Made by a program: the position numbers and the translations under genes
Shown: in pieces, positions 11,531-63,139 of the stretch
How the letters are laid out: every line of letters starts with the position of its first letter
How positions within the stretch are numbered: position 1 is the stretch's first letter
Assembly (NCBI GenBank): GCA_045531485.1
Contig: JAZSEC010000018.1
Location: forward strand, 3,170-67,169
Reading direction: 5' to 3'
DNA from: Eubacteriales bacterium
GTDB taxonomy: Bacteria; Bacillota; Clostridia; Oscillospirales; CAG-272
DNA: 64,000 bases
The notes under the pieces: model-generated
Seen by the model: only the letters and a program-made list of their open reading frames with translations
The model's database searches: none
What the model was told of the DNA's origin: nothing

Positions 11531-11567
11531 AAAAGGTTGCAAAATCGTCGATTTTGCAACCTTTTTG
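11531..11567. terminator. Bidirectional terminator between convergent genes
   Basis: AGGTTGCAAAAT-CGTCG-ATTTTGCAACCT with flanking A-run and T-run. Confidence 0.6.
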
Positions 11568-11616
11568 TCTTATCTACCAATAAAGAAAAGCTTCCTTTGG
11601 CGGATGATTTTTTATT

Positions 11617-46000: not shown

Positions 46001-46050
46001 TTTTGATTTCGCAAAGATTTTAATAAAAATTTATATAAAGGAGAACCAAA

Positions 46051-46788: not shown

Positions 46789-46914
46789 TCTATTTCTTTA
46801 TTATTTACTTTTATTATTTACTTTACAGATGTTGTTCGTAATTACATTACGTTTACATAATCAATTTTATTTAGCAAATACAATCAAAATCTGATAATAA
46901 GGAGGTAGATAGTC

Positions 46915-47550
46915 TTGACAAAAAGAAAAAGAAGCGTGCTGCTATCCTTCGTGACGCTGATGCTTTGCTCGGCACTCGTTGTGGGTGGTTCGTATGCACT
47001 CTTCTCCGATCAGGTAGCTCTTACAACACATCTGAAGGCAGGCACACTCGATATCACTCTCGAGCGTACCGATCTTACGTCAAGGACCTTGGATTACAGC
47101 ACCGGTTTCCTTACCGATAAAAATAATCCTGAGATAGTTGATTTCTCCGGTCCCACCGATAGAAACGTGTTTGACCTTGGTATCGACGATAAGATCGTTC
47201 CCGGTTGCAGCTATGCGGCAACTATGAAGCTTACCAACAGGACCGACGTGGCGTTTGCTTATTGGATCCAGGTTGTAAACAGAGATGGCGACGTGGTTGA
47301 TCTTGCAGATCAGCTTCTCGTTACCGTAACCACTAAGGACGGTATCGTAGTTGACGGTATGGTCAGCGACGGTCTTCGGGTTGGCAGCTCCGTAAATCCT
47401 ATTGGAGTAATGGCAATCGGCGATGCCGAAAGCTTTGTGGTAACCCTTGAGTTCCTTGATCTTCCCAACAACAATCTCGCAAAATCCCAGAGCCTTAACT
47501 TCGACGTCGTGGTTCACGCCGTTCAGGTTACAGAGGCACCCCAGCAATAA
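46915..47550 (+). CDS. TasA/camelysin-family protein with SipW-cognate signal (class 'ALF[ST]')
   Basis: TTG start 9 nt after AGGAGG. 'GGSYALFSDQVALTTHLKAGTLDITL' resembles the CalY/TasA N-terminus. C-terminus '..SQSLNFDVVVHAVQ'. Confidence 0.8.
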   Translation: MTKRKRSVLLSFVTLMLCSALVVGGSYALFSDQVALTTHLKAGTLDITLERTDLTSRTLDYSTGFLTDKNNPEIVDFSGPTDRNVFDLGIDDKIVPGCSYAATMKLTNRTDVAFAYWIQVVNRDGDVVDLADQLLVTVTTKDGIVVDGMVSDGLRVGSSVNPIGVMAIGDAESFVVTLEFLDLPNNNLAKSQSLNFDVVVHAVQVTEAPQQ

Positions 47551-47656
47551 CTCCTAGCAAAAAAGTAACTTACAGAATTTAAGCACGCACATACCCTTAC
47601 TTGGGTTCTGAGTTAAATAAAAACAAAAAAATAAAAAATAAAAAGGAGAAACACAA

Positions 47657-48340
47657 ATGCAAAACAAAAAGAAAATTTTGTTTTCCTCAATCGTGACAAT
47701 CGCTATCTGCTTTTGTCTGATCACCGGTTCTACGTTCGCACTTTTCACAAGTGAGAGCGACCTGAACATTGCAATCACCTCCGGTAACGTTGAGCTTACT
47801 GCATCCATCAGTGCAGTTGATCTCTACTCTATCAGAGCACTTCGCGATGGCGAGACCGCCGAGACCTACGATGAGTACAATCACGGCTACGTTTTCGAGC
47901 AGCAGCAGAACGGCACCTTCGCAAACGGTGGCTCCGCAGCTCTCGCTAACGGCAACGAGCTTACTCTCAGCAGAGTAACTCCCGGTGACAAGGTTCGCCT
48001 TACCGTTGCTACCGCTAACACCAGCGACGTTATCATCAAGGCTCGCTACACCGTTTCCTGCGAAGCAGGCGATGCTCTTGCACAGGTTCTCGTTATCAGA
48101 GTTCTTGACGCTCAGGGCAACGTTGTTGAAGAGTTCCAGGGCATCGACGAGTACGTTTCCGCTTGGGAGACCCTTCAGGTTGGTGCTAATATGACCAACG
48201 CTTACCTCGAGATCGAGCTTCCCGCAACCACCGGTAACTCCTATCAGCACAACCAGCTTGTAGCTGCTGATCCTAACTACACCGGCGTTGAGCTTCTCAT
48301 CCACGTAGAGGCAGTTCAGGGCAACGGCACTATCGACTAA
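47657..48340 (+). CDS. TasA/camelysin-family protein (class 'ALF[ST]')
   Basis: 'TGSTFALFTSESDLNIAITSGNVELT' N-terminus, 'GNSYQ....HVEAVQ' C-terminus, 227 aa. Confidence 0.8.
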   Translation: MQNKKKILFSSIVTIAICFCLITGSTFALFTSESDLNIAITSGNVELTASISAVDLYSIRALRDGETAETYDEYNHGYVFEQQQNGTFANGGSAALANGNELTLSRVTPGDKVRLTVATANTSDVIIKARYTVSCEAGDALAQVLVIRVLDAQGNVVEEFQGIDEYVSAWETLQVGANMTNAYLEIELPATTGNSYQHNQLVAADPNYTGVELLIHVEAVQGNGTID

Positions 48341-48451
48341 TTTATTAGCCGAAATTACACTATAAGGTTCTATCGGATCGGGAGTGACCCTATCCGACAG
48401 AGTTAAATGACTCACTTTGATTTTTACTAAAAAAATGGCAAGGAGGTAGCG

Positions 48452-49042
48452 ATGTTCCGTTCTAAAAATATTAATAGCACGTTTATCATGGCGGGATTAG
48501 TTATACTGATTTGCCTGGTTTCGCTAACGGGTGCAACTCTTGCACTCTTTACATCCAATCCCGATGACGGAAAAATCGGTGTTATTGCCACCACCGGTAA
48601 CGTTAAGATCGACATCGTAGATGCAAAGACTGAGGATACGCTTATTGACGATGTTCTTCAGTTCAAGGCTGCAGACGGTGAGGCGGGTATCCTGTTTGAA
48701 CCCGGTGCAACCTTCTATACAGTCGGCTTTAAGGCTAAAAACGTTGGTGACATTCCCGTCAACTTCCGTATGTACATCAGCGAGGACGAAAGTCTTGATA
48801 TGGATGAATTTGAAAAGGCCTTTGAATTTTACATAACCACCGATCCCGAGAATCCTACCGATGCAGAGAAGCTTCTTAACTTCACCGGCAGGCTTGAGGT
48901 TGGTCAGAGTAGCGATACCTACTATCTTGTTATCAGGATGAAGGAGGATGCTACCAATGATTTTCAGGGCAAGGTATACACGGGTATCGGCATCACCGTA
49001 TGTGCGGTACAGGGCAACGTGAATATAGAAGGATTAGACTAA
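48452..49042 (+). CDS. TasA/camelysin-family protein (class 'ALF[ST]')
   Basis: 'TGATLALFTSNPDDGKIGVIATTGNVKIDI' N-terminus, 'TNDFQGKVYTGIGITVCAVQ' C-terminus, 196 aa. Confidence 0.8.
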   Translation: MFRSKNINSTFIMAGLVILICLVSLTGATLALFTSNPDDGKIGVIATTGNVKIDIVDAKTEDTLIDDVLQFKAADGEAGILFEPGATFYTVGFKAKNVGDIPVNFRMYISEDESLDMDEFEKAFEFYITTDPENPTDAEKLLNFTGRLEVGQSSDTYYLVIRMKEDATNDFQGKVYTGIGITVCAVQGNVNIEGLD

Positions 49043-49043
49043 A

Positions 49044-49862
49044 ATGAAAGAAAAGGTTAAAAAGATAATCAACATTTCAACAAAGGTACTGACCTGGCTG
49101 CTCGTTGTCTTTACCGTCTTTATGATGATATTTACAATAGTTACGGTTTTAACCGTTAACAAGAACGAGCGAAGCATCTTCGGCTATAAGTTCTACATTG
49201 TACAGACCGACTCAATGAGCGAGTCTGAAAACAATGCCGATATGGAAGTACACTTTAACGCAGGTGATATTATTATCATCAAAAACCTTAAGGATCCTAC
49301 CACACTCCAGGCTGGCGACATAATCGCGTTTATGTCTGCCAATAAGGAGAGCTGGGGCGAGACCATCACCCATATGATCCACGAGGTTAAAAAGGATGAA
49401 AACGGCAAGACTGTTGGCTACGTTACCTTCGGTACCAACACGGGTGCTATTGACGATGCTGTCGTAACTCCCGAAACGGTGCTTGGTAAGTACACAGGTA
49501 AGCTTCCCATAGTCGGAAGATTCTTTGCCTTTGTTAAATCCACTCCCGGCTACATTGTATGTATCCTCGTACCCTTCCTTCTGCTTATCCTTTACAACGG
49601 TGCGAACGTAATCATTCTGTTCCGTAAGTATAAGAAGGAGCAGACCGACGCGATCGCCGCTGAGAGAAAGCAGATCGAGGATGAACGTGCCGAGGCACAG
49701 CGTATGATGGCCGAGCTGCTTGAGCTTAAGGCTCAGCTTATGAAAAACGGCGGCGGGGAATCAGCCCCGAATGCCGAGGCTACTGCCGAGACCGAAAAGG
49801 CCGACGCAGACGAATCGGAGTCTGACTCCGATGACACAGAGTCCCACAAGGACGATAATTGA
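49044..49862 (+). CDS. sipW: SipW-type signal peptidase I, copy 2 (divergent boxes, long acidic tail)
   Basis: 'IFGYKFYIVQTDSMS' (Ser box), 'ETITHMI' (His box), 'FGTNTGAIDD' in place of GDN, a second TM helix and then a coiled-coil/acidic tail of about 85 aa. The ATG lies 1 nt after the preceding stop. Confidence 0.78.
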   Translation: MKEKVKKIINISTKVLTWLLVVFTVFMMIFTIVTVLTVNKNERSIFGYKFYIVQTDSMSESENNADMEVHFNAGDIIIIKNLKDPTTLQAGDIIAFMSANKESWGETITHMIHEVKKDENGKTVGYVTFGTNTGAIDDAVVTPETVLGKYTGKLPIVGRFFAFVKSTPGYIVCILVPFLLLILYNGANVIILFRKYKKEQTDAIAAERKQIEDERAEAQRMMAELLELKAQLMKNGGGESAPNAEATAETEKADADESESDSDDTESHKDDN

Positions 49863-49910
49863 AAAAACACTGTTAGTTCATAAAAAATAATACAAGGAGG
49901 AAAAACTCAC

Positions 49911-51593
49911 ATGACTAACACTTCTACAAAGCGTGCACTGTTTTCCAGTGTTGTTTCGCTCTTCCTCTGCTTTGTAATGCTCATGGGTACAACCTTCGCA
50001 TGGTTCACCGACGTTGCGACCAGTGAGGGCAACGTAATCCAGGCAGGTACCCTTGACGTTCAGCTCTTCAAGCACGATGCTACAGGTAGCACCGAGATTA
50101 CCGATTCCAGCGATCCCATCTTCGGCAAGGCTGATTCTGCTAATGCAAATGCAAACACCGCAGACACCCTTTGGGAGCCCGGTAAGACTCAGACCGTTTA
50201 CCTTTCTATCAAGAACAACGGTTCTCTTGATCTCAAGTACACCGTTGCTATCGAGGTTACTAACATCGAGAATAATCTTAACGAGGTTCTCTACTACGTT
50301 ATCACTCCCGATGCAACCGTTGCAAGCCCTGTAACCAAGGATACTCTTCCCAGCAACTGGGATACCTGCAACAAGGTAGAGGCTGGTATCAACTTCGCTT
50401 CTGATGGCGACACCGCTCTTCAGGCAGGTGGCGAGCACTTCTTCGCTCTCTCCGTACATATGGATGAGGATGCAGGCAACGAGTATCAGGAAGGCAACGT
50501 TACCTTCAACATCAAGGTTCTTGCAGGCCAGCTTTCTTCTGAGGAAGACAGCTTCGGTGCTGACTATGACCTGGATGCTATCTATCCCGAAGGATTTGTA
50601 ACTCTTCCCGCTGACGACGAGTTCCCCGTAGCAGGTTATGAGATTCCTTACTACCTTGACGGCGAGAAGATCGGTACCATCACCGTTCCTGCTGCAGCTC
50701 TTCCCGAGGGCTCCAGAAACCTTGTTTACACAGTTACTCCTACCCAGGTAGATTCTAACTTCTCTGTAACCGCTGCTCAGACTTATGCATTCGACATTGA
50801 GGTTATCGGTCTTGTAGAGAACAACACCGCTCCCATCCTTACCGAGGTTCGTATCGACAAGGATATCGAGGGCGAAATCGCTGTTTACCACAACAACACC
50901 GAGCGTATTGAGATCGACTCTTACAACCCCAATACCGGTATGGTTAAGTTCTACACCACCTCCTACAGCCCCTTCGTTGTTGTTGTTGACGAAGAGGTTG
51001 AGATCACCGATTTCACCGTTCCTCAGGCAGTAGTTACCTACCTTCCCGAGTATGTTAACAACGCTAACATCGAGTGGGGTCAGTATGACAACTGGTCTCC
51101 TGTTTCCGGTGTTGAGGCTAACCTTGACGTTTGCTTCAGCTTCACCTCTCTTCATGACACCGACACTGTTACTCAGTGCCTCTACAAGGATTGGTACGTA
51201 GATTTCGTAGTATCTCTTGATTCTCCTCTTGGCGAGAACCAGATCTTCCTTGGCGGTAACTACGGTTCCTTCGGTTGGGTAGGCTTCCATAACAGAGACC
51301 TCACCCTCGATGCTAACTATGAGGTTCCCCTTCTTGGTTCTGTTACCGGTGGTGACGAGAGAGTCAGCGGTTGGAGATATGAGGATATCGTAAACTACGT
51401 TGGCGGCTTTATCTGCGGCGTAGGTAACGTTGGTGATAACCTTGACGGTGCAACTGTTACTGTTGTTCTTCGCCTTACCAACCCCGAGAACCTTAATGAT
51501 CAGATCGACGTTAGCACAATTACTTACACCTTCGATGGCGATACTTACACCATCAACGGCGAAGAGTTCACCAAGACCACTGTTAACGAGTAA
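49911..51593 (+). CDS. 560-aa secreted protein: N-terminal TasA-like domain (class 'FAWF[TS]') plus C-terminal extension
   Basis: 'GTTFAWFTDVATSEGNVIQAGTLDVQL' ... 'DAGNEYQEGNVTFNIKVLAGQ' ... 'SFGADYD'. GGAGG RBS. Confidence 0.82.
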   Translation: MTNTSTKRALFSSVVSLFLCFVMLMGTTFAWFTDVATSEGNVIQAGTLDVQLFKHDATGSTEITDSSDPIFGKADSANANANTADTLWEPGKTQTVYLSIKNNGSLDLKYTVAIEVTNIENNLNEVLYYVITPDATVASPVTKDTLPSNWDTCNKVEAGINFASDGDTALQAGGEHFFALSVHMDEDAGNEYQEGNVTFNIKVLAGQLSSEEDSFGADYDLDAIYPEGFVTLPADDEFPVAGYEIPYYLDGEKIGTITVPAAALPEGSRNLVYTVTPTQVDSNFSVTAAQTYAFDIEVIGLVENNTAPILTEVRIDKDIEGEIAVYHNNTERIEIDSYNPNTGMVKFYTTSYSPFVVVVDEEVEITDFTVPQAVVTYLPEYVNNANIEWGQYDNWSPVSGVEANLDVCFSFTSLHDTDTVTQCLYKDWYVDFVVSLDSPLGENQIFLGGNYGSFGWVGFHNRDLTLDANYEVPLLGSVTGGDERVSGWRYEDIVNYVGGFICGVGNVGDNLDGATVTVVLRLTNPENLNDQIDVSTITYTFDGDTYTINGEEFTKTTVNE

Positions 51594-51629
51594 TTCTTAG
51601 TAAGTAGTTTTTAATTACTAACTAAAAAC

Positions 51630-51655
51630 GCCACCCGACCTTCGGGTCGGGCGGC
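51630..51655 (+). other. GC-rich hairpin with TTCG loop after the 560-aa gene
   Basis: GCCACCCGACC-TTCG-GGTCGGGCGGC. No 3' T-run on the + strand; the T-run is on the minus strand. Confidence 0.7.
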
Positions 51656-51726
51656 AATAAAAGGGCATAAGGCTTATATTATATATAATAATTAATATGT
51701 AGTTTTTTTGTGCGTTTTTATTGCCG
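51652..51726. repeat. 11-bp inverted repeat CGGCAATAAAA / TTTTATTGCCG bracketing a 52-bp AT-rich core
   Basis: Arms at 51652-51663 and 51716-51726. The same arms recur at 55222-55233 and 55386-55397. Confidence 0.75.
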
Positions 51727-51794
51727 ATAGGCAACGGGGTCTTACCCCGCAGCGAAATATCCCTATTGAAAAAATACATATAGGAGTTTTCATC

Positions 51795-54700
51795 ATGAAA
51801 AACACAAAGCACTCTATCCGCACAAGCTTAACAGCGTTGCTTTTATGCTTCGCTATGCTTCTCGGAACGACATTCGCGTGGTTTACCGATGTAGCTGTAA
51901 GCTCGGATAACCTTATTCAGGCAGGTAGCCTTGATATCGCTCTTATGAAGGGTACGCCCAACGGTGACGGAACCTGGACTTGGGTAGAAAATAACGGCGA
52001 GGCTATCTTCGATTATGACAAATGGGAGCCCGGCTATACCACCTGGGCTGCACTTGCTGTTGAGAACCACGGCACCCTTGCTGCAAAGTGGCAGGCAATG
52101 CTTACTCTCGACGGTACACCCTCTATTCTTGCAGACGTGATCGAGGTTTATTCTACTTACGATCATATCTTCGATCCCGATACCCGTCCCGATTTTACCG
52201 ACGGTACTTGGAGAAAGATGGGTACAGTTCGCGAGCTTCTTGACAATGACGGTATGCTTCTCAGCGGCGACTTTATCGAGCCTGAACACCGTCAGCCTAT
52301 CGTTATCGCTCTCCACATGGTAGAGGATGCAGGTAACGAGTATCAGGGACTTAACCTCGGTGCAAACTTTAACATCAAGGTTATGGCAACTCAGGCAAGC
52401 TTTGAAAACGACTCCTTTGGCGACGACTACGACGCAGATGCAGAATGGCCTGATGATTTCAAGTTCGAGACATCTACCGGTGTTGATCAGCTTCAGATCC
52501 TTAATAACGAGCTTGTAAATCCCTTTATCATCAGATATAACGACTCGATCTATGCCGAGCTTTCCGCAGGCACAAAGCTTGCAGCAGGCGTAACCGAGAT
52601 CAAGTTCTCCGGTAGAACTGCCGATGGCGAGAACAATCTTACTCTTGGTGAGGGCGACAGTGCTAAGGATTACGATATTCACATCGAGGGTATCGCAGAG
52701 GATAACACCCAGCCTATCAAGGTCTACCTTGGCAAGCTTCTTCAGCCCGGCCTTGACAAGACCTCTCTTAAGCTCTACCACGAGGACACCCAGATGACCA
52801 GAGTTGACAGCGTTGCTGATTTCCTTACCAACAACCAGTTCTTCTATGACGTTCAGACCGGTGAGGTTGTTATCTACGTAGATAATTTCTCTGTATTCAC
52901 CAGTGTTACTACTTCTGCTGTGGCATGGAGTGGCGATGCTGCTAATGCATTTGCTTCGGGTGCAGGCACAGAGGATAATCCTTATGTAATTAAAACTCCC
53001 GAACAGTTTGCATATTTCAGAAATCAGGTTGACGCCGGTAACTCCTTCAAGGGTAAGTATGTTAAGCTTGATGCAGATATCAATCTTAATAGAATTCCCT
53101 TCGATCCCATCGGATTTGGTTACTGGAATGAATCTAAAGTTGATGCAAACGGTAATGATACAAACACCGTATTCATGGGTACCTTCGACGGTGGAAATCA
53201 CACCATCTATAACCTTTACGAGAACTGCTGGGAGCTTGATACCGCCCAAAACAATTACAGCACCTATACATACAGCACCGCGGGTGCAGGTCTTTTCGCT
53301 TCTATTAAGAATGCTACTATTAAGAACCTTATGATTAACGGTGCAGAGATCGTTTTCGAGTGCGTTGATATGGGTATTGTTGTTGGCTATGCTCAGGGAG
53401 AATGTCACTTCGAGAACATCGTTGTTGCTAATGCAAATATTGCAAACTACAACCGTTATACCGGTGGCGTAGTTGGTGAGGTTAGCTACGGTGTAGATAA
53501 TAACGGTGATGGCTTCAGCCACACCTTCAAGAATATTACCGTTGACTCTACCGTTACCGTTTCCGGCCTTTGGGGATCCTTTGGCTGCGGTATGGGCGGT
53601 GTAATCGGTGGTAAGTGGGGCGATGCAACCGTTAAGATGGAAAACGTTGTTTCCGCTCCTGTAATGGACGTATATAATGACGTTGTTTCCGCTTACCAGT
53701 GGTACGCATTCCGTGGTTGCGGTATGCTTATCGGCCACACCGAGGAGCCTTACTCCGACGGCAGAACATCCGGCAAGGCAACTGCAGACTTCCTTACTTG
53801 TGAGAGCGTTACCGTTTACTATGGCGATTGGGTAAATCAGACATATTATCAGTTTGCAAAACAGACCGATAAGGACGGCAACAGACTTTGGTACAGTGAT
53901 TATCCTTGGGTAAGAGTTGAGCCCGGTAATTATTGCGATGCTTACTCTAATATCAGATACGGTATTCCCCAGGTTAACGGTGTTAAGGTTACCGAACTCA
54001 GTCCCGAAGAGTTCGAGAAGGCTGTTACAGACAAGGTTTCCATTCCCTTCGATCAGCTTTACGGTGCAGACCGCGGTATGTATGGTCAGTCAGAACACCC
54101 CGGTGTAACCGTATTAAGAGCTGCGTACACTACCAAGACTGTATACTTTGAGAACAACCAGAATTGGGAAAACGTTTACATCTACTATTGGTGCCAGAAC
54201 GGTAACGATGAGTGGGATAACAACGCATTCCCCGGTCAGCCTATGACCCTCGTTCAGTCTTCTACTGAAGGTGCTCATGATGTCTACTCCTTTAAGGTTC
54301 CTAGCTTTGCTAAGGGCTTCATCTTCTCTGATGGTAAGGAAGTAAACCTCGAACACAAGCATTACCAGACTATTGATATTGATGTAGCTGGAGATGTTGA
54401 TAATGTAATCTTTTGTCTTAATGAAATTGACTACGAACAGGTTGTAGAAGGAAACAAGGTAGATTATAAGTATTCTGTCAAGTCTTCTCAGTATAAAGAT
54501 GGTTATTCGACCGTTTATTTCAAGAACGGATTCCTGTGGGATAAGGTTGAAATGTATTATAACATAGGTGATGACACAAGTGGTAGTTGGTCTAAAGGAA
54601 CAGTAAATCTTCTTGGATATGATGGATCTTACGAATACTATAGCATCATTGTTCCTAATTATGCTACAACATTTAATATTAGCGGTGAAAAGAATACCGG

Positions 54701-55166
54701 TACTGGAGAACGCGAGTCGACAGTTGATATTAGTGTTAGCGGATTGACAGAAAACGTGATGTATGCACCCAGTGGTACAAGTAACAGCGGCGTAACAATA
54801 ACTACATCTTCCTTTAATGCAAGTGTAATTAAAGACGGATACAAGTTGCTCTATTATAAGCCTTCGTCTGATTGGTACAATGACAATGCTAGATTTGCAG
54901 CTTATGTTTTTAAAGGATCGAAAAACGAATGGTATAACGTCAATAAGTATTCAGATGGCATTTGTAAGGTTTGGGTGTCTACTTCTTACAGTAATATCAT
55001 TTTCTGTCGTATGAATCCCGCTTATACAACAAACAGTTGGGATGAAAACAATAAGGATTATGTTTGGAATCAAACGGCGGACCTTACAATACCTACAGAC
55101 AGCAATAATATGTTTAAACAAAATTCAGGATGGGATGGCGTAAGCGGCACTTGGTCCACAAAATAA
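51795..55166 (+). CDS. 1123-aa secreted protein: TasA-like N-domain + Ig-like + beta-helix/GLUG-like core + three CBM-like C-terminal modules
   Basis: 'GTTFAWFTDVAVSSDNLIQAGSLDI' ... 'DAGNEYQGLNLGANFNIKVMATQASFENDSFGDDYD' ... 'GTEDNPYVIKTPEQFAYF' ... 'GTFDGGNHTIYNL'. The C-terminal modules resemble 'TVYFENNQNWENVYIYYW'. The ATG at 51795 follows AGGAG. Confidence 0.85.
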   Translation: MKNTKHSIRTSLTALLLCFAMLLGTTFAWFTDVAVSSDNLIQAGSLDIALMKGTPNGDGTWTWVENNGEAIFDYDKWEPGYTTWAALAVENHGTLAAKWQAMLTLDGTPSILADVIEVYSTYDHIFDPDTRPDFTDGTWRKMGTVRELLDNDGMLLSGDFIEPEHRQPIVIALHMVEDAGNEYQGLNLGANFNIKVMATQASFENDSFGDDYDADAEWPDDFKFETSTGVDQLQILNNELVNPFIIRYNDSIYAELSAGTKLAAGVTEIKFSGRTADGENNLTLGEGDSAKDYDIHIEGIAEDNTQPIKVYLGKLLQPGLDKTSLKLYHEDTQMTRVDSVADFLTNNQFFYDVQTGEVVIYVDNFSVFTSVTTSAVAWSGDAANAFASGAGTEDNPYVIKTPEQFAYFRNQVDAGNSFKGKYVKLDADINLNRIPFDPIGFGYWNESKVDANGNDTNTVFMGTFDGGNHTIYNLYENCWELDTAQNNYSTYTYSTAGAGLFASIKNATIKNLMINGAEIVFECVDMGIVVGYAQGECHFENIVVANANIANYNRYTGGVVGEVSYGVDNNGDGFSHTFKNITVDSTVTVSGLWGSFGCGMGGVIGGKWGDATVKMENVVSAPVMDVYNDVVSAYQWYAFRGCGMLIGHTEEPYSDGRTSGKATADFLTCESVTVYYGDWVNQTYYQFAKQTDKDGNRLWYSDYPWVRVEPGNYCDAYSNIRYGIPQVNGVKVTELSPEEFEKAVTDKVSIPFDQLYGADRGMYGQSEHPGVTVLRAAYTTKTVYFENNQNWENVYIYYWCQNGNDEWDNNAFPGQPMTLVQSSTEGAHDVYSFKVPSFAKGFIFSDGKEVNLEHKHYQTIDIDVAGDVDNVIFCLNEIDYEQVVEGNKVDYKYSVKSSQYKDGYSTVYFKNGFLWDKVEMYYNIGDDTSGSWSKGTVNLLGYDGSYEYYSIIVPNYATTFNISGEKNTGTGERESTVDISVSGLTENVMYAPSGTSNSGVTITTSSFNASVIKDGYKLLYYKPSSDWYNDNARFAAYVFKGSKNEWYNVNKYSDGICKVWVSTSYSNIIFCRMNPAYTTNSWDENNKDYVWNQTADLTIPTDSNNMFKQNSGWDGVSGTWSTK

Positions 55167-55203
55167 CCCCTAGCTATTTAAAAAGTTAAACAAATTAAAA
55201 GCC

Positions 55204-55221
55204 CCCGACCTTCGGGTCGGG
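55204..55221 (+). other. Hairpin with TTCG loop after the 1123-aa gene
   Basis: CCCGACC-TTCG-GGTCGGG. It sits within a 30-nt stretch identical to the one at 51633-51663. Confidence 0.7.
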
Positions 55222-55397
55222 CGGCAATAAAAGTACATAAAAATGACGTGCAATGCTCGTTTCTGCAAAACCTCATCCACCGCGATGCGGTCCCCCTTCT
55301 CCAACAGAGAAGGCTTGCAGATCATACCTCTCCGATAAGGCGAGGATTCAGGGTGTTTTACTGCAATATTGTAAACATTTGTGTGCTTTTATTGCCG
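55222..55397. repeat. 12-bp inverted repeat CGGCAATAAAAG / CTTTTATTGCCG bracketing a 152-bp core
   Basis: Arms at 55222-55233 and 55386-55397. The core contains an ACCTCATCC-type repeat copy. Confidence 0.75.
55270..55314 (+). repeat. ACCTCATCC + two-hairpin repeat unit (diverged copy)
   Basis: ACCTCATCC, then ACCGC-GAT-GCGGT, then CCTTCTC-CAACA-GAGAAGG. Confidence 0.6.
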
Positions 55398-55446
55398 AAT
55401 ATGGCAAGAAATCGGGTTATTATTAAAAAATTACATAAAGGAAAAA

Positions 55447-58400
55447 ATGCTAATGAAAGACACAAGACGTTCATTGCTCACAAGCACTATTTCATTGCTG
55501 CTCTGCTTTGTTATGCTGCTTGGAACAACCTTCGCTTGGTTTACCGACATCGCTGTCAGCGAGGGTAACGTAATCCAGGCGGGTAAGCTTGACATCGAGC
55601 TGATGCAGGCGACAAAAACCGCTTCCGGTTGGGATTGGCAGTCCGCTTCGGGCAAGGCAATCTTCGACTATGATAAGTGGGAGCCCGGCTATACCACAAC
55701 CGCAGTTCTCGGCGTGCAGAACAACGGCACCCTCTCTGCAAATTGGACCGCTAAGCTTGTTCTTAACGGCACACCCACTATTCTTGCAGACGTTATCGAG
55801 ATTTACGTAACCAGCTATAAGAATTATCCCGATGCCCGCCCCGACTTTAATGACGGAAATTGGCAGAAGCTCGGTACCGTTCGCGACATTCTTGACAATG
55901 ACGGTCTTATTCTTCCCGGCGGTCAGATCGATCCCGGCCGTCGTCAGCCTATCCTTGTTGCTCTCCACATGAGAGAGGATGCAGGCAACGAGTATCAGGG
56001 ACTTAACCTCGGTGCTAACTTTGATATCGTAATCATGGCGACCCAGGCATCTGCAGAGTCCGACTCCTTCGGCAGCGACTATGACACCGATGCTAAGTGG
56101 CCCGAGATTCCTTCCGTTGGCAACAGTGCCAGTGCGAACGTTACTCTCGATGAGAATAACCTCCTCACCGAAGAGGTTACAATGACCAGTGCGGATGGCA
56201 AGATCTCTGCCACCCTTCCCGCAGGCACAAAGCTGCTCCCCGGCACAACAACCGTAAAGCTTGTTATAGCCGACAAGGAGAACAGCGAGGCTAACCTTAC
56301 CCTTGACGATAACCAGGCGAGTCTTTCTCTCGACGTACACGTCACCGGCATCGCTGATGATAACGACAAGGCAATCAAGGTTGAGCTTGGCGAGGTGCTT
56401 CCTACCGGTCTTAATATGGGTAACTATAACCTCTATCACGTAGAGGACGGTCAGACCAACATTATGACCCTTCTTGATGACACCGTAGGCATCGGCCACA
56501 ACACCTATGCATACGATCCCTCTAACGGTAAGGTTGTCGTATATATGGCATCCTTCTCGGAGGTTACTCTTGTAGCCGAGCCCGCTAAGTGGGAGGGTAA
56601 TTTTGATTACTCCTGGTATACAAACGCGGTTGCTCCTGTTGATGGTGAGTCCACAGCAGATTATGTAATCGCAAATGCTGACCAGCTTGCAGCCTTTGGT
56701 GCAATCGTTGGCGGTATGAACGGTCAGACTCAGGATTCCTTCTCGGGCAAGACCGTAAAGCTTATTTCCGATATCAACCTTGGTGACAAGGAGTCGGAGA
56801 ACAACCCCGACATCATCTTCTATCCCATCGGTTACTACAATTCCGAGGGAACCTATGAGAGAACTAACACCGCTATCACCTCCGGACTTAAAAACTTCGA
56901 GGGTACCTTCGACGGTAACGGTCACACAGTTTCTAACTTCTACCAGAACACCTGGGAAATGAAGGGCGATCATAACTGGTACAGCCCTGAGGAGCAGTAT
57001 TACCGCGACGGTATGGGTCTGTTCGGTAGAGTTTACGGCGGTACAGTTAAAAACCTTACTGTAAAGAACTTCTCCTCCGACGGTGAGATCGCTACTACCG
57101 GTGTTATCGCTGCTTACGCAGACGGTGCCACCTTTGAAAATATCGCGATCTTTAACTGTAATCCCAGAGTATATAACATCGGCAACGGCGGTATCGTTGG
57201 TTGCGTTGGTTGGTACGCTAAGGAAGCGAACCTTAAGACCACATTCACTAACATCACCGTTGATAACTCTAACAAGATCTCCGCACTTTGGGGCTCTTAT
57301 GACGTAGCATGCGGCGGTATCGTTGGTCAGTATTATCCCACCAGCGGCCAGACCTCTGCAGGCACTCCCAAGAACGCAGGTATTGAGTTTACCAACTGCC
57401 ACGTTTCCGCGGTTATGGACGTTTACAACGACGTTTGTGCGAACTATCAGTACTACGCTTACCGTTACACCGGTATGCTTATCGGCTCCGTTCGTGAGAA
57501 CGTTGAACAGAACGGTCACGTATATCCCGATATGACCGGCATCACCGCTGAGAACTGTACAGTTCACTTTGGTGACTGGAACGACTATTACTATTGCGAG
57601 ATCGTTGCAAACTCTCTCGCATCTTATACACACGATCATCAGTTCAGCCGTCTTACTCAGGTGGCATCTGTTGACGTTGAGAATATGAAAGTTACCGACC
57701 TTAAGGGTAACGAAACTGATATTCCTACTTCTGGTTGGGTTCACTACGTTGTAGTTAAAAATAAGGATAACACAACAGGCAAGTGGATCCACGGTGACGG
57801 TTCTAACTATGCAACCTGCTATCACTTTAAGGATGGCGAGGTTTGGACTCACGATAAAGCAGGAACAGAAACCGTCAACGGTGTTGAGGGTGTTCTTAAG
57901 GAAGATAAGCAACTTGTTTACCTCGAGTTCAACAACCTCGTAACCGGCTACGGCTGGGGTGTAACCTCTAAGGGCGTTGGCGATCTCACAGGTGTTACTA
58001 TTCTTGATAGAGCAGAAGGTAATTCTGTTGAAAAGTTTGAAAGCGATGTAACCGAGCTTTCGAACAATAGAGAATATAAGCTTAGTGAAATCTTCACTCT
58101 AATTGAAAACACAGGCGTTGAACTTGTTCCCGGTGCTCTTGCAGTAAGTGTTACTAACCTTGAAGAAAATAATCTCGTTTCTGCGACTATCGTTTATGAT
58201 AGAAACAACTGGGAAAACAGCACAATCACACTTACCGGTGATGGTAAGGTTAAGATCACCATTCAGGACTACTACTTCTGTACTCCTACTACCATTGAGG
58301 TAACTGTTACAGATCGTCAGCCTGAAGAAAAGTTTGAACTTGTATTCCAGAATACTGAAAAATATCTTTATAAGATTGGTAATGTAAATACCGTAAAGCT

Positions 58401-61400
58401 TGGTCAGTTGTTCAAGGCTAAGGATGGTGCAGAAATCGGCACTGTTTCTGTAAAAGTTGCGGCGGTTGAAGGATCCGGTGCAAGCGGTGTATACACAAGC
58501 AACGCAACTTGGACCAATGGAACAATCCAGTTCTCCGGCACAGGCGTTGTAAAGGTTACCATTACCGATAACGATTACTGCACACCTACTGTGCTTTACC
58601 TCGAGGTTGTTGATGCAGTAAATGCAACCACAGCAACAAGTGCAACAGCTAATAACGTTGTACTTCTTAATGACATTTCAAGCGGCTTTACCGTATCCGG
58701 CAGATATGCAGTATATGGCAACGGCTTCACACTGAACTACACCGGCAACGGTCAGTATCTCAACAACGGTCTTAAGCAGGGTATTGTTACCGTTTCTGGA
58801 AACGGCACACTTGACAACCTTAGAATTAAGGCAAGCATTTATCCCACTTCTTATCTGTATTATGAACAGGTAAAGAAGGGTCCTTCTTCTGTAGAAGGAG
58901 ATAAGACCAGATACCACTATCAGCTTTCTGCAGTAGCGGCGTCTGAAAATGCAACAATTTCTAACTGCTATATTTACGGCGGAAGAAATAATATCTATAT
59001 TGGAACAGGTAACGTAACCGTTAAGGATACGGTTCTTGAATGCGGTACTGTTTCTAATATCCAAATTATTAGCAATGATAGTCACACCATAACCTTTGAA
59101 AATCTTACTACCATCCAGTACCTTGTAAGTCCTACTGTATTTGACGATGAAGAAACACAGAAAGACTTTAAGATGATTGGCTTTGGTATCTTTGTTGGTG
59201 ACGGTGACGCTGATATAATTCCCACTAACCCCAAGCTTGTCTTTAACGGCGACTTGAAGCAGTATAACTGGGTAAGCGAAACCGAAGTAAACGGTGTTAA
59301 TAGCAACAACTCCGGATACATTGAGAATGCTCTTAATGCAGCTATTGGAAACGAAACATATAAGCGTGATGACGGTACTGCAAATATGGGCGTTGTATTC
59401 CTGAATAACCAGACTACTAACATCGAAAATAATACAGGAATAGATTATCAGCTTGGTGAAATTTCGATTATGAATGTTACGGGTCAGGTTTACTCTATTC
59501 CTAAGACCGAAACCGAAATTTATACCGATTATGCAAACGCTGACAGATCTACTGTAAACGGACTCTACGTTCCTCAGTTTAAGTATCCTGCAGACCTTGG
59601 TGGTCAATACATCGAAAAGACCGATGATGGTGACGAATTTGTTTATCGTGAGGGTGATGTAATTTATGTAATGTTCCCCTCCGGTGATAGTAAGGAACTT
59701 GATCTTGCGGCTCTTGTAAATATTGTAAAATATACCGGTCAGGATCTTGGTCTTGTTATTACAGTTAAGGATGGTAATGGAAATGCTGTCGCTGTAAATA
59801 ATGGAAAGATTACACTTTCCGCAGCAGAAGAATACACTATAACTTACACTGTAACCGATACTCTGTTCTATGATAAGGGTGGAAACACTGTTGATGGTAC
59901 AGAAATGTATTCTTGGGATGTAACTGTATCTGTTTCCCTCAAGGACACAGCAGTTCCCAACGCATACTTTACATACGATACCACAAAGCAGACTATGGGA
60001 TATGCGAAGAAGAGTGTCTTTTCTGGTGGTCAAACTCAGTATCTTCCCTTCCTTGCAGGTCTTAAGATTTATGACTATGTTGGACAGAATGCATATCTCA
60101 GATTTGACGGTGATAGCGACTTTAGTAAGATTGCTTCTGCTGAAATCACCGGATATACAAGTGCAAATCACGTTCTTATCAAAGTAACGCTTACCGACGG
60201 CGGTGTTATTAACATCGATACAACCGCAAGAGCGGCGTCGGGTGGTTCTACATATACAGGAAAGCTTCAGACAAGCGGCAACACTCTGTACTATGTAAAC
60301 GACGGTACTACAAGTGCAACAACTACAACTTGGGTAATTTCCAGTTACAAGTTTGTAGGTAACAACGGTGTTGAAATTGACTCTGGTGCTGTTACCTTCT
60401 CAAACTGCGAGAATGGAAGTGTTCCTACCGGTTCCTTCAGCACTACAATTAAGTACACTGTAACCTATGATGCAAATGGTGGTGACTGCGGTCAGACCGT
60501 TGGTTATGCTACATCTGCTGCAACAGCAGTGACCCTTCCCACACCCACTCGTAGCGGTTACACCTTCACAGGTTGGTATACAGCAGCGAGCGGTGGTGAA
60601 AGAGTTGGTGGTGCAGACGACAGCTACACACCTTCTGCAAACATCACTCTCTATGCACAGTGGGGCACGCCTTCTACTGTAACCTATGATGCAAATGGTG
60701 GTTCTTGTGGTACTGCAAGCGAAAAATTTGACGGTAAGACCCTCATTCTTCCCGAGGCTACAAGAGATGGTTACACCTTCCTTGGTTGGTATACGGCAGC
60801 TACAGGCGGTGAAAGAATAGGACCTGCTGGTATGAGCTATAATCCTACAGGAGATATTACCCTCTATGCACAGTGGCAGTTGCCTATCACCGTAACCTAT
60901 GAGGTAAATGGCGGTTCTTGTGGAACTGAAAATGAAGTTTATGATGGTGATTTGACTCTTCCTACCCCCACTCGTACAGGTTACGACTTCCTTGGTTGGT
61001 ATACAGCAGAAACCAATGGTACGAGAGTTGGTGGTGCAGGCGAAAGCTACACACCTTCTGCAGATATCACTCTCTATGCTCAGTGGGAACAGATTAGTTA
61101 CACAATTACTACTGATGAGAATAAAGCAACTGTAACCGTTGATAAGACTTCAGCACATTATGGCGATACTGTTACCGTAACAGTTTCATTCTCAGAAAAC
61201 AATGACAAATCTCTTACAGTAACGGACGCAAGTGGAAATGAAGTTCTTAGTAAGTCTGCTGCGGGTACTTATACATTTACAATGCCTGCAAGTAATGTAA
61301 CCATTAAAGCAAGTAGTTCTGGCACATGCTTCACTCCCGACACTCTTATCACTCTTGCAGATGGTACTCAGGTACGCGTTGATTCGCTGACCGGTGAAGA

Positions 61401-62028
61401 GATGCTTCTCGTTTGGAACCATCAGACCGGTGCATTTGAGAGCGTTCCTGTGGCTTACATCGTAAACCACGGTGGAGAAAAGTCTGAGCAGGAGATTACT
61501 CACCTCTACTTCTCCGACGGAAATGAAATTAAGATTATTGGAGAGCACGTATTCTTTGACGTAACACAGAATAAGTACGTATCCATTACAAGCGAAAATG
61601 CAGAAGAGTATATCGGTCACCTGTTCACAGGTATAAACGGCACCAATGATGCTCTTACTACCATTGAGCTTACAAAGGTTGAAAGATACGTTGAGGAAAC
61701 CGAGGTTTACGAGGTTGTTTCCTATGAGCATCTTACATGCTTCACCAACAATATTCTTTCCACCTCCGCATATCTTGACAAGCTGTTAAATATCTTTGAC
61801 ATCAATCCTGACACTATGGCATACTCTGCTGAGCTTGTGCAGAAGGATATTGAAACCTATGGCTTGTACACTTATGCAGACTTCGAGGGATTGATTTCCG
61901 AAGAAGCATTTGAAATGTATAACGCGTCTTACCTCAAGATTGCGGTAGGCAAGGGATACATAACATGGGATGATATTCTTGATTTGATTGACATCTACTT
62001 TGCAGCAGAGGTTAATCCTATTCAGTAA
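55447..62028 (+). CDS. 2193-aa secreted protein: TasA-like N-domain + Ig-like + beta-helix regions + 3 Listeria-Bacteroides repeats + C-terminal Hint domain and 86-aa tail
   Basis: 'GTTFAWFTDIAVSEGNVIQAGKLDI' ... 'DAGNEYQGLNLGANFDIVIMATQ' ... 'GTFDGNGHTVSNF' ... 'NATISNCYIYGGRNNIYIGTGNVTV'. Three 'VTYDANGG..GY.F.GWYTA..GG.R.G....Y.P..DITLYAQW' repeats follow. The Hint domain starts at 'CFTPDTLITLADGTQVRV'. Confidence 0.85.
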   Translation: MLMKDTRRSLLTSTISLLLCFVMLLGTTFAWFTDIAVSEGNVIQAGKLDIELMQATKTASGWDWQSASGKAIFDYDKWEPGYTTTAVLGVQNNGTLSANWTAKLVLNGTPTILADVIEIYVTSYKNYPDARPDFNDGNWQKLGTVRDILDNDGLILPGGQIDPGRRQPILVALHMREDAGNEYQGLNLGANFDIVIMATQASAESDSFGSDYDTDAKWPEIPSVGNSASANVTLDENNLLTEEVTMTSADGKISATLPAGTKLLPGTTTVKLVIADKENSEANLTLDDNQASLSLDVHVTGIADDNDKAIKVELGEVLPTGLNMGNYNLYHVEDGQTNIMTLLDDTVGIGHNTYAYDPSNGKVVVYMASFSEVTLVAEPAKWEGNFDYSWYTNAVAPVDGESTADYVIANADQLAAFGAIVGGMNGQTQDSFSGKTVKLISDINLGDKESENNPDIIFYPIGYYNSEGTYERTNTAITSGLKNFEGTFDGNGHTVSNFYQNTWEMKGDHNWYSPEEQYYRDGMGLFGRVYGGTVKNLTVKNFSSDGEIATTGVIAAYADGATFENIAIFNCNPRVYNIGNGGIVGCVGWYAKEANLKTTFTNITVDNSNKISALWGSYDVACGGIVGQYYPTSGQTSAGTPKNAGIEFTNCHVSAVMDVYNDVCANYQYYAYRYTGMLIGSVRENVEQNGHVYPDMTGITAENCTVHFGDWNDYYYCEIVANSLASYTHDHQFSRLTQVASVDVENMKVTDLKGNETDIPTSGWVHYVVVKNKDNTTGKWIHGDGSNYATCYHFKDGEVWTHDKAGTETVNGVEGVLKEDKQLVYLEFNNLVTGYGWGVTSKGVGDLTGVTILDRAEGNSVEKFESDVTELSNNREYKLSEIFTLIENTGVELVPGALAVSVTNLEENNLVSATIVYDRNNWENSTITLTGDGKVKITIQDYYFCTPTTIEVTVTDRQPEEKFELVFQNTEKYLYKIGNVNTVKLGQLFKAKDGAEIGTVSVKVAAVEGSGASGVYTSNATWTNGTIQFSGTGVVKVTITDNDYCTPTVLYLEVVDAVNATTATSATANNVVLLNDISSGFTVSGRYAVYGNGFTLNYTGNGQYLNNGLKQGIVTVSGNGTLDNLRIKASIYPTSYLYYEQVKKGPSSVEGDKTRYHYQLSAVAASENATISNCYIYGGRNNIYIGTGNVTVKDTVLECGTVSNIQIISNDSHTITFENLTTIQYLVSPTVFDDEETQKDFKMIGFGIFVGDGDADIIPTNPKLVFNGDLKQYNWVSETEVNGVNSNNSGYIENALNAAIGNETYKRDDGTANMGVVFLNNQTTNIENNTGIDYQLGEISIMNVTGQVYSIPKTETEIYTDYANADRSTVNGLYVPQFKYPADLGGQYIEKTDDGDEFVYREGDVIYVMFPSGDSKELDLAALVNIVKYTGQDLGLVITVKDGNGNAVAVNNGKITLSAAEEYTITYTVTDTLFYDKGGNTVDGTEMYSWDVTVSVSLKDTAVPNAYFTYDTTKQTMGYAKKSVFSGGQTQYLPFLAGLKIYDYVGQNAYLRFDGDSDFSKIASAEITGYTSANHVLIKVTLTDGGVINIDTTARAASGGSTYTGKLQTSGNTLYYVNDGTTSATTTTWVISSYKFVGNNGVEIDSGAVTFSNCENGSVPTGSFSTTIKYTVTYDANGGDCGQTVGYATSAATAVTLPTPTRSGYTFTGWYTAASGGERVGGADDSYTPSANITLYAQWGTPSTVTYDANGGSCGTASEKFDGKTLILPEATRDGYTFLGWYTAATGGERIGPAGMSYNPTGDITLYAQWQLPITVTYEVNGGSCGTENEVYDGDLTLPTPTRTGYDFLGWYTAETNGTRVGGAGESYTPSADITLYAQWEQISYTITTDENKATVTVDKTSAHYGDTVTVTVSFSENNDKSLTVTDASGNEVLSKSAAGTYTFTMPASNVTIKASSSGTCFTPDTLITLADGTQVRVDSLTGEEMLLVWNHQTGAFESVPVAYIVNHGGEKSEQEITHLYFSDGNEIKIIGEHVFFDVTQNKYVSITSENAEEYIGHLFTGINGTNDALTTIELTKVERYVEETEVYEVVSYEHLTCFTNNILSTSAYLDKLLNIFDINPDTMAYSAELVQKDIETYGLYTYADFEGLISEEAFEMYNASYLKIAVGKGYITWDDILDLIDIYFAAEVNPIQ

Positions 62029-62040
62029 TCACCCACAACC

Positions 62041-62062
62041 CCCAAGCCCTTCGGGGCTTGGG
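62041..62062 (+). other. Hairpin with TTCG loop after the 2193-aa gene
   Basis: CCCAAGCCC-TTCG-GGGCTTGGG with no T-run. Confidence 0.7.
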
Positions 62063-62099
62063 TGGTACCTAAAGGGCGGGAAAGACCGAGGCGGTCTAC

Positions 62100-62152
62100 A
62101 CCTCATCCGGCTTGTTGCACAAGCCACCTTCCCCTCCGATCAAAGGGGAAGG
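62100..62152 (+). repeat. ACCTCATCC + two-hairpin repeat unit
   Basis: ACCTCATCC, then GGCTTGT-TGC-ACAAGCC, then CCTTCCCCT-CCGATCAA-AGGGGAAGG. 'GCCACCTTCCCCTC' is shared with the right end of the DUF559 cassette. Confidence 0.7.
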
Positions 62153-62216
62153 CGATAGGTCCGCTGAGCTTTCCGGCAGGGCGAGGCTGATACGGACGAC
62201 CAATGGTCGCCCCTAC

Positions 62217-62250
62217 GGTCTACACCTAATCAGGACAAAGGAAAAGGCTA
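62217..62250 (+). repeat. Degenerate copy of the same repeat
   Basis: GGTCTACACCTAATCAGG..., compared with GGTCTACACCTCATCCGG at 62093. Confidence 0.45.
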
Positions 62251-62269
62251 TCACGCCTTTTGGGTACCA

Positions 62270-62510
62270 AAGCCAAAAATAATTTTGGCATCGGAACAAA
62301 TTAATTTCCAAAGCAAATTAAATCAAAATTCCAAAGCACAAGCAACGCATATTTTAAACCAAAGCACGAGCAAATCAAAGGCTCGAAAAAGCAAAGCAAA
62401 TTCCCCAAAAACAACGCAAAATTCAACCAAAAGCAAAACGCAAAGCAAATTAACCAACCCCGCAAAGCATTTTATTTGCAAAAACAAAAAACGAAAAATA
62501 AAGCTAGGCT
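62270..62510 (+). other. CA-rich, G-poor low-complexity tract (CAAAG/AAAGCA reiterations)
   Basis: About 240 nt dominated by CAAAGCA-like units. Its only ORF (62285-62524, TTG start, no SD) encodes a K/S/Q low-complexity peptide. Confidence 0.6.
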
Positions 62511-62572
62511 TGACAGTCAAATGAGTCATTTTAAGAAATTCATTCACCAAATTCAGAAAGGAGGTTGCCACG

Positions 62573-63139
62573 ATGGGCCTTTTCGATCTCTTCAAAAAGA
62601 AGCAGTCTGACGAGAACAATGGCGTTAACGCGGATAAAATTTTCATTCGTAACGTCGGCGTGTCTTTCGTAGGAATAATCATCTGCATCGTGATGCTGTC
62701 CGCATCAAGCTATGCCTGGTTCAGCACCACCATCGAGTCCAACAACTCCATAACCTCCTCTGTTTATAAGCTGGATATCGGCGTCGTTGAAGAGGATGGC
62801 GGGGTTACTCCGCTGACCGCTACGGTTACCGAGAACGGCGACTACGTTTACAGCCTCGAGGCAGGGAAGACCTATACGGTCACCATCACCGCCCTGGCAG
62901 AAAACACCACCGGCAAGACAGGTTACATAAAGCTCCGTACGAGCAAGATGGCAGAGGACGACCGTGCCCTCTACTCCGAGCAGATCGACCGCGGTGATAC
63001 CATCAGCTTCAACCTCCATTACACCGACTCCACCGACGTTACCATCATCGAGGGCTGGGGAATGTCCAGCGTCCCCGAGGACGAAAGAGATATTCTGAAC
63101 GGTGGCTCCTACGGCGATTCTACCGCAAATGGAAGCTGA
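62573..63139 (+). CDS. 188-aa protein with a SipW-cognate-type signal (divergent)
   Basis: GGAGG RBS and a long n-region, then 'MLSASSYAWFSTTIESNNSITSSVYKLDI'. It lacks the C-terminal NxYQG...Q strand motif. Confidence 0.65.
   Translation: MGLFDLFKKKQSDENNGVNADKIFIRNVGVSFVGIIICIVMLSASSYAWFSTTIESNNSITSSVYKLDIGVVEEDGGVTPLTATVTENGDYVYSLEAGKTYTVTITALAENTTGKTGYIKLRTSKMAEDDRALYSEQIDRGDTISFNLHYTDSTDVTIIEGWGMSSVPEDERDILNGGSYGDSTANGS

Follow-up and report, generated by a model that had tools for sequence, protein, structure and literature searches.

The 64,000-nucleotide stretch of DNA analysed here, hereafter the window, covers positions 3,170 to 67,169 of contig JAZSEC010000018.1 from an Eubacteriales bacterium (assembly GCA_045531485.1), and it contains a gene for a 2193-aa secreted surface protein (55447..62028, plus strand, stop codon included) made up of a long passenger and a C-terminal cassette. 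The cassette, aa 1961-2193, consists of a Hint (Hedgehog/intein) domain and an 86-aa acidic helical tail, and, judging from its conserved residues, we believe that it is probably a self-contained autoprocessing unit, in which an N-S acyl shift at the first residue of the Hint domain would lead to release of the whole Hint-tail fragment. The open reading frame (ORF) is uninterrupted from 55381 to 62028 on the plus strand, and counting from the ATG at 55447 reproduces the 2193-aa length given in an earlier sequence-only reading of this DNA. Related loci in which the host protein is matched at a coverage of at least 60% number 47.

The passenger begins with a SipW-dependent-type signal peptide and the start of a camelysin/TasA-like domain ('LLGTTFAWFTD'; 55447..55590, plus strand). 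This N-terminus, MLMKDTRRSLLTSTISLLLCFVMLLGTTFAWFTD, fits the SipW-dependent signal model TIGR04088 (cognate_SipW) above its cutoff (aa 23-48, E 3.4e-5) and gives a weak match to the camelysin/TasA family PF12389. Directly ahead of the cassette the passenger ends in a stalk of Listeria-Bacteroides repeats of the InlB B-repeat type (aa 1670-1956; 60454..61314, plus strand), which PF09479 (Flg_new) matches in three stretches (E 8e-42) and PF18998 at aa 1886-1956, and which also matches InlB chains in the PDB. Between stalk and cassette lies a Gly/Ser-rich linker, 'SSSGT' (61312..61326, plus strand), whose last residue, Thr1960, occupies position -1, so that the predicted scissile bond is the one joining Thr1960 to Cys1961. 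Residue counts here and below refer to 83 related C-terminal regions, drawn from a scan of species-representative genomes together with the window and two metagenome loci; among them Ser, Gly, Thr or Asn stands at -1, with Gly and Ser abundant at the two positions before it, -2 and -3.

The Hint domain spans 147 aa (aa 1961-2107; 61327..61767, plus strand). Curated hidden Markov models (HMMs) run on the single sequence gave only sub-threshold matches to it, namely PF01079 (E 0.007-0.0005, 16-20 bits against a cutoff of 29.7), PF14890 Intein_splicing (E 0.001, 19 bits against 35.8) and TIGR01445 intein_Nterm (E 0.004, 18 bits against 24.5), all of them beginning at Cys1 and spanning approximately the first 85 residues, and they gave none for the tail; evidence from structure and from the family was therefore needed. 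An AlphaFold2 model of the last 244 aa, Hint plus tail, built on an alignment of 69 homologues, has a mean predicted local distance difference test score (pLDDT) of 92 and a predicted TM-score (pTM) of 0.88. When this model was compared with the PDB by Foldseek, 63 matches were obtained at E<=1e-3, and Hint domains account for 50/50 among the matches listed. The top match is the bacterial intein-like (BIL) domain BIL2 of Tetrahymena (6y75, E 3.5e-9), and target-normalised TM-scores for BIL2, the DnaB and RecA mini-inteins and Hedgehog 1AT0 lie between 0.76 and 0.83 (NpuDnaB 0.82; DnaB/RecA mini-inteins 0.82-0.83; Hedgehog 0.82), with the A-type BIL of C. thermocellum (2lwy) ranking 37th at a TM-score of 0.74, below the inteins and Hedgehog. 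The family profile also aligns with BIL2 from Cys1 through to block G ('fvngmLsm' on 'FANGVLAH', E 0.008). In a Pfam search of 70 family members, PF01079, the Hedgehog-type Hint model, matched 37 and Intein_splicing 9, and PT-HINT (PF07591), Hint_2 (PF13403) and Vint matched none. The C-terminal Hint domain proposed in the sequence-only reading is thus borne out by structure prediction and by the family profile, although the curated HMMs to which it had looked for support stay below threshold. Overall, the modelled fold and the catalytic residues place the domain in the Hint superfamily, of which the family to which it belongs is a divergent branch.

The position-1 Cys and the block-B His are also real. 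Cys1961 (61327..61329, plus strand), the block-A nucleophile, lies where it had been placed from the sequence, after 'SSSGT' and at the start of CFTPDTLITLADG, and all of the peptides then quoted were found; this residue is Cys in 81 of the 83 relatives and aligns with Cys1 of both Hedgehog and BIL2. The peptide 'IKIIGEHVFF', from which the block-B His was expected to come, contains His2034 (61546..61548, plus strand, in 'IGEH'), which is kept in 82 of the 83 relatives, is invariant in the 69-homologue alignment, and aligns with Hedgehog His329. At the Thr position of the block-B motif TxxH, the window protein has Gly, and the family as a whole has Tyr, Ser or Gly. At the other end of the domain, VYEVVSYEHLTCFTNNILSTS, taken earlier to represent blocks F and G, aligns with 'FFANGVLAH[N]' of the solved BIL2 Hint structure. 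The absence of the His-Asn that ends block G in inteins is likewise upheld, but the residues that replace it are, by alignment, Thr2106-Ser2107 (61762..61767, plus strand) and not 'Ser-Thr' as proposed. None of the 83 relatives has Asn at the terminal-Asn position (Met-Pro in approximately 56, Thr/Ser in the others), and the +1 residue, Ala2108 in the window protein, is Gly or Ala in 77 of them, both of which agree with the earlier prediction of N-terminal cleavage or transfer only, without splicing. In weak alignments, HMMER and hhalign set the family consensus 'ilFiD' on Hedgehog 'ILFMD', which holds the sterol-activating base of Hedgehog (Asp46/Asp303), and 'xEH' on 'TPAH'. The residue equivalent to Asp46 is Asp in 56 of the 83 relatives; the window's subfamily has '[DN]H' there, and the window protein itself has Asn2007-His2008 (61465..61470, plus strand).

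The tail (aa 2108-2193; 61768..62025, plus strand) is fused directly to the Hint domain and, as had been recognised from the letters, is acidic and helical: 'AYLDKLL...NPIQ' contains 16 Asp/Glu residues against 4 Lys/Arg, has an isoelectric point of 4.05, and forms five to six helices in both AlphaFold2 models, that of Hint plus tail and that of the tail alone. The pLDDT of the tail is greater than 90 within the two-domain model versus 85 when it is modelled alone, and in the two-domain model its first 20 residues contribute bridges to the Hint sheet; as modelled, the two domains form a single body. No Pfam family matches the tail, and a fold search with the tail alone returned best E-values of 6 (PDB) and 2.9 (BFVD), that is, no fold relative. 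Its conserved residues include Asn2115, Phe2117, Asp2134, 'IETYGLYTY', Lys2164 and 'GK2169G', and in tail numbering the near-invariant positions include Asn8, Phe10, Asp27, Lys57 and Lys62-Gly63; tail positions 28-37 had served to pick loci, and their conservation is in part an ascertainment effect.

A profile built from 24 tails, without the Hint domain, was searched against 1.84 billion representative proteins (50%-identity clusters) and matched 2225 of them at E<=1e-3, 1877 at E<=1e-10. Among the best 150 of these 2225 matches, 146 are new proteins, and a Hint domain lies 1-4 residues upstream of the tail in 141 of the 146; the five without Hint are fragments of 81-206 aa. Within the same best 150, the tail ends no more than 11 residues from the C-terminus in 136 of the 141 Hint-bearing proteins. 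Pairwise identity averages 16% immediately before Cys1, 54% within the Hint domain, 53% across the tail and 18% over the final 8 residues, and the jump from 16% to 54% falls exactly at Cys1. Residues 1961-2193 (233 aa) are therefore one conserved unit, Hint plus tail, joined without a linker. Neither the helical tail nor the Hint-tail cassette was found in Pfam, NCBIfam, the PDB or the literature searched, where Bürglin 2008 treats a different, proteobacterial Hint subgroup (PMC2362128). The Hint superfamily is itself known; what is new is the helical tail and the widespread use of the Hint-tail cassette as a terminal module.

A word-index search with the tail profile returned many apparent 'tail-only' proteins of 80-150 aa. 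Free-standing tail proteins were rejected on inspection, as three cases checked on long contigs proved to be decayed or miscalled genes; one has an in-frame stop inside the Hint domain, another retains a 5'-truncated Hint remnant, and the third (L084-L086, 7935-8264) is an 87-aa relic comprising the end of the Hint domain and the tail ('NVNGMLSMPGG...'), which comes straight after a V-ATPase operon, 14 nt behind the gene for V-type ATPase subunit D. An identical protein occurs in 64 blocks of the searched collection, and its downstream context differs between contigs, which suggests a rearrangement hotspot. Decay is seen in several cassette genes, those of L087 (7650-8261), L088 (5763-8270) and L001 (10001-11053), in the form of a Hint domain cut short at its 5' end, a nonsense codon within the Hint domain, and a 350-aa fragment that lacks a signal peptide. 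These genes suggest a fast turnover of the surface-protein genes that bear the cassette.

The genome scan of species representatives yielded 392 stretches, and the best 80 come almost entirely from metagenome-assembled gut Clostridia (Oscillospiraceae, Christensenellaceae, 'Eubacteriales'). Carriers of the cassette are mostly uncultured gut Clostridia of humans, ruminants and birds, and it occurs also in records titled Acholeplasma laidlawii, uncultured Mollicutes and Methanomethylophilaceae archaeon. In the 8195 record of A. laidlawii (NZ_CP126461.2; L045), an in-frame TAA at 9854-9856 separates a 1725-aa passenger ORF from the Hint-tail ('...FSGEGK*FGSSTL...'), and either the stop is a sequencing error or this wall-less host has a pseudogene or a switchable gene here. 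In the metagenome-assembled genome of the Methanomethylophilaceae archaeon (L069, a 1.17-Mb contig that is archaeal by record title only), the cassette terminates an ORF longer than 3578 aa, which is probably a transferred adhesin-like gene. One locus (L071) carries two adjacent genes, 1481-7537 (2019 aa) and 7870-11991 (1374 aa), each of which ends in the cassette; these are tandem paralogues.

The passengers are varied. Host ORFs in the representative set have a median length of approximately 1770 aa and a maximum of approximately 4900 aa, and cassette hosts of 700 to nearly 5000 residues are annotated by their passenger domains only. Nearly all host N-termini are signal, pilin-like or transmembrane segments, among them 21 SipW-type signals, three type IV pilin-like leaders and other hydrophobic leaders; one complete pilin-like protein with the cassette is only 417 aa long. 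Passengers sampled with Pfam include an S8 subtilase, BspA-type leucine-rich repeat (LRR) proteins with Flg_new repeats, and proteins with Flg_new repeats only. Elsewhere, Gram-positive surface proteins of these kinds end in LPXTG, SLH or GW anchors. Passenger and cassette similarity are uncoupled (61% identity in the passenger against 47% in the cassette at one locus, 41% against 76% at another), which suggests that the cassette is shuffled as a module.

From these observations a general pathway can be proposed, in which both the occurrence and the site of cleavage are what we infer from the conserved residues. Consider the 2193-aa protein as it is made: it would be exported by Sec, and its signal would be removed by SipW. 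Cys1961, aided by His2034, would then attack the carbonyl of Thr1960, and the N-S acyl shift at this bond would leave the passenger, now approximately 1930 aa, held on a thioester. Neither splicing nor cleavage between Hint and tail would be expected to follow, because without the terminal Asn no succinimide can form, and without a Cys, Ser or Thr at +1 there can be no transesterification; on these residues, both reactions are excluded for the whole family. Instead, a nucleophile from outside would resolve the thioester, freeing an intact 26-kDa Hint-tail fragment of 233 aa, and the passenger would then end either in a free C-terminus or in an ester- or amide-linked adduct. Since cleavage between Hint and tail is excluded, the released fragment would have to be the whole Hint-tail, never the tail alone. 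Of the proposed steps, we consider export, formation of the thioester at Thr1960-Cys1961 with the help of His2034, and release of the Hint-tail fragment to be well supported. When 887 ORFs from the 80 neighbourhoods were clustered, no recurrent enzyme partner, acyltransferase, sortase or immunity-like gene was found, and the lack of a conserved partner enzyme leads us to regard the cassette as self-sufficient. The most likely role of the cassette is in the C-terminal maturation or attachment of large surface proteins, since it occupies the slot in which an LPXTG, SLH or GW anchor would otherwise sit.

Among known systems, the cassette appears to work most like, and scores closest to, the Hog arrangement of Hedgehog (PF01079; 1AT0, 6TD6), although membership of the Hog family is not established. 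Both are C-terminal in a secreted protein with a signal peptide, both place Cys1 after a small residue ('GT/CFTPDT' in the window protein and 'HG/CFTPES' in Hedgehog, the slash marking the bond), both have the block-B His, lack the terminal Asn and do not splice, and both carry a region of approximately 90 aa directly after the Hint domain. PF01079 is, in addition, the Pfam Hint model that most members match, 1AT0 is among the close structural matches, and in the weak alignments the family Asp falls on the sterol-activating Asp46. The window protein differs from Hedgehog in being bacterial, in having Asn-His at the Asp46 position and in missing the block-B Thr, and its tail is an acidic, compact body of five to six helices, whereas the sterol recognition region (SRR) of Hedgehog, which cholesterolysis requires, is a membrane-associated helix-loop-helix (PMC7906309). 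No similarity of sequence or fold was detected between the tail and the SRR. From the obligate fusion of the tail to the Hint domain, its conservation at the level of the Hint domain, and the Lys, Asn and Asp residues that do not vary in it, we infer that the tail is the functional counterpart of the SRR, or more broadly of an adduct recognition region (ARR), and that it would control which nucleophile reaches the thioester, or when.

The BIL domains (Tetrahymena BUBL BIL2, 6Y75/6TMM; C. thermocellum A-type, 2LWY) resemble the cassette as non-intein Hint domains without a +1 nucleophile, and BIL2 is the best match of the family in both sequence and structure, with 'IVKH' in BIL2 for 'IVNH' here. 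Unlike the cassette family, which never has Asn, BIL2 and the A-type BILs keep the terminal His-Asn, and BILs are usually internal to variable regions, without a conserved domain after the Hint. PF13403 (Hint_2), taken here as a proxy for B-type BILs, matches none of the 70 members searched. Inteins differ in having the terminal Asn and the +1 Cys, Ser or Thr, and in being followed by the rest of the host protein, whereas here the sequence after the Hint domain is a conserved domain of its own. Like a pretoxin Hint (PF07591), the cassette Hint lies near the C-terminus of a large Sec-exported protein; unlike one, it matches PF07591 in none of the 70 members searched, its post-Hint domain is conserved, and no immunity gene follows. 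Judged by its sequence features, then, the cassette Hint is neither an intein nor a pretoxin Hint, and it does not fit the A-type BILs. An analogy, but no more than that, can be drawn with the LPXTG/sortase system and with the C-terminal domain and PorU of the type IX secretion system, in which subtilases, LRR proteins and adhesins likewise have a short terminal module behind a stalk of repeats, and in which this module, as predicted for the cassette, is removed in maturation through an acyl intermediate. The chemistry of the cassette would, however, be self-catalysed, without a separate transpeptidase, the cassette has no membrane-spanning segment, and attachment is hypothetical.

What becomes of the thioester is the point on which the possible explanations divide. 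In one, the thioester is simply hydrolysed and the Hint-tail is a removable C-terminal cap with no acceptor that aids folding, holds back assembly or adhesion, or acts as a timer, with the tail merely stabilising the Hint domain or slowing hydrolysis. We hold this to be a genuine possibility, if not a probable one. Hint domains without an acceptor do hydrolyse, the 80 neighbourhoods contain no conserved partner or acceptor-making enzyme, a common acceptor is hard to name for hosts that include an archaeon and organisms without peptidoglycan (Acholeplasma, Mollicutes and Methanomethylophilaceae all lack it), and the tail is acidic and soluble, not lipid-binding. At the same time, a tail whose conservation equals that of the catalytic domain, in which certain Lys, Asn and Asp residues never vary and which is kept in 141 of 146 architectures, is under more constraint than a passive cap would require, and most members retain the Asp that aligns with the sterol-activating Asp46 of Hedgehog. 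In the other explanation, to which we give similar weight, the cassette is a covalent attachment device, like Hedgehog or sortase, in which the tail binds an acceptor and the C-terminal carboxyl of the passenger is transferred to it, anchoring or fixing the protein; candidate acceptors are an envelope glycolipid or polymer, the amine of a peptidoglycan stem peptide, a Lys of a TasA-like fibre subunit, and a host or dietary glycan. In favour of attachment are the presence of the cassette in the wall-anchor slot of subtilases, LRR/Flg_new proteins and SipW-dependent proteins that have no other recognisable anchor, the Hedgehog-type Hint with its Asp46-like residue, the folding of Hint and tail as one body in the model, and the match to BIL2, which joins N-terminal cargo to Lys amines by an isopeptide bond without ATP (PMC8616854). 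Against it, no acceptor has come to light, envelopes differ greatly from host to host, the tail in its acidity does not resemble the SRR, and some passengers are already anchored at the N-terminus by pilin-like or transmembrane segments. The case for peptidoglycan as the acceptor in every host is weakened by the Acholeplasma, Mollicutes and Methanomethylophilaceae records, of which the Acholeplasma copy is itself interrupted by the TAA. Transfer to an acceptor other than water, taken broadly, is speculative and falls somewhat short of an even chance; simple hydrolysis is about as likely. The strongest form of the idea, that the cassette is the bacterial counterpart of the Hedgehog Hog domain, with the Hint domain forming its thioester outside the cell and the helical domain presenting a specific acceptor, so that thousands of large clostridial surface proteins would be attached covalently by the C-terminus with neither enzyme nor ATP, we regard as doubtful. 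An adduct-recognition role for the tail, which the sequence-only reading had also suggested, would fit its obligate fusion, the single-body model, the invariant polar residues, the preference for the Hedgehog-type Hint model and, in most members, the aligned Asp.

Two further explanations would dispense with release of the whole Hint-tail. The sequence-only reading had suggested that the tail might be a released effector, as in polymorphic toxins of the 'pretoxin-Hint' type, and a Hint domain just ahead of the C-terminal domain of a large secreted protein is indeed the architecture of such toxins (PMC3482391). We have rejected this suggestion, and consider it most improbable: the post-Hint domain is constant, one conserved domain in 2225 clusters, as conserved as the Hint domain itself, and it is the passengers that vary instead; PT-HINT matches none of the 70 members, and the tail, small, acidic and all-helical, matches no Pfam family, toxin families included; and, without the Asn, there is no means of cutting the tail from the Hint domain, so that the tail alone cannot be released. 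The immunity-like gene that was to be looked for nearby also failed to appear, the conserved downstream gene encoding a secreted protein with a SipW-type signal. The Hint domain might, alternatively, be catalytically silent, a structural or binding module whose tail tethers the uncleaved protein to the envelope non-covalently. The missing block-B Thr and the sub-threshold single-sequence HMM scores are compatible with a silent Hint domain, but among 83 relatives with otherwise about 50% identity, 81 keep Cys1 and 82 keep the block-B His, which implies selection on the catalytic residues, and we think a silent domain improbable. The proposed autoprocessing, with release of the whole Hint-tail, thus remains the reading we prefer, and several points weigh against it and its Hedgehog-like extension. 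The case for cleavage is drawn from conserved residues alone; the block-B Thr is replaced by Gly, Ser or Tyr, and the window protein has Asn-His, not Asp, at the Asp46-equivalent position; the alignments of the family with Hedgehog are weak (HMMER E 0.07, hhalign probability 37%); and the tail is acidic and soluble, unlike the membrane-associated SRR, to which it has no detectable homology. In addition, no single envelope acceptor fits hosts that include Acholeplasma, Mollicutes and Methanomethylophilaceae, and this diversity of envelopes favours water or a generic nucleophile.

Regardless of how the thioester is resolved, large surface proteins of gut Clostridia terminate in the Hint-tail cassette in their thousands, at the place where a cell-wall anchor would normally sit. 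If the Hint domain only cleaves, it would provide a maturation step common to a large class of gut-bacterial surface proteins. True transfer would mean a new way to anchor or cross-link Gram-positive surface proteins, and the first bacterial module of Hint plus recognition domain comparable to that of Hedgehog, with a bearing on the origin of Hedgehog autoprocessing; if the Hog-like interpretation holds, the cassette would anchor proteins by its own catalysis where others depend on sortase, and Hedgehog autoprocessing would plausibly have a relative among prokaryotes. A compact 26-kDa tag that cleaves or ligates itself could also serve protein engineering.

Around the giant gene, the window carries a SipW/TasA-type operon (45212..63139, plus strand). 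It includes two SipW-like signal peptidases (45212-46000 and 49044-49862, plus strand) and, in addition to the 2193-aa protein, six proteins with SipW-type signals, all on the plus strand and starting at 46915, 47657, 48452, 49911, 51708 and 62573; the seven proteins with such signals measure 211, 227, 196, 560, 1152, 2193 and 188 aa, and only the largest bears the cassette. The 1152-aa protein (51708-55166) has a starch-binding module, CBM26, a hint of a fibre that adheres to starch. Across the 80 neighbourhoods, SipW and TasA-type genes are the only recurrent neighbours, and they are confined to the window's subfamily, SipW genes recurring in 12 related loci and the small downstream protein in 15. 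Two antisense ORFs inside the giant gene, at 55492-57912 (minus strand, 806 aa) and 58678-60171 (minus strand, 497 aa), in all likelihood do not code and are shadows of the coding frame. A gap of 545 nt (62029-62572) that contains no ORF separates the giant gene from the next gene with a SipW signal; a single terminator-like site and a single promoter-like site were detected in it, each on the minus strand and at a level expected by chance.

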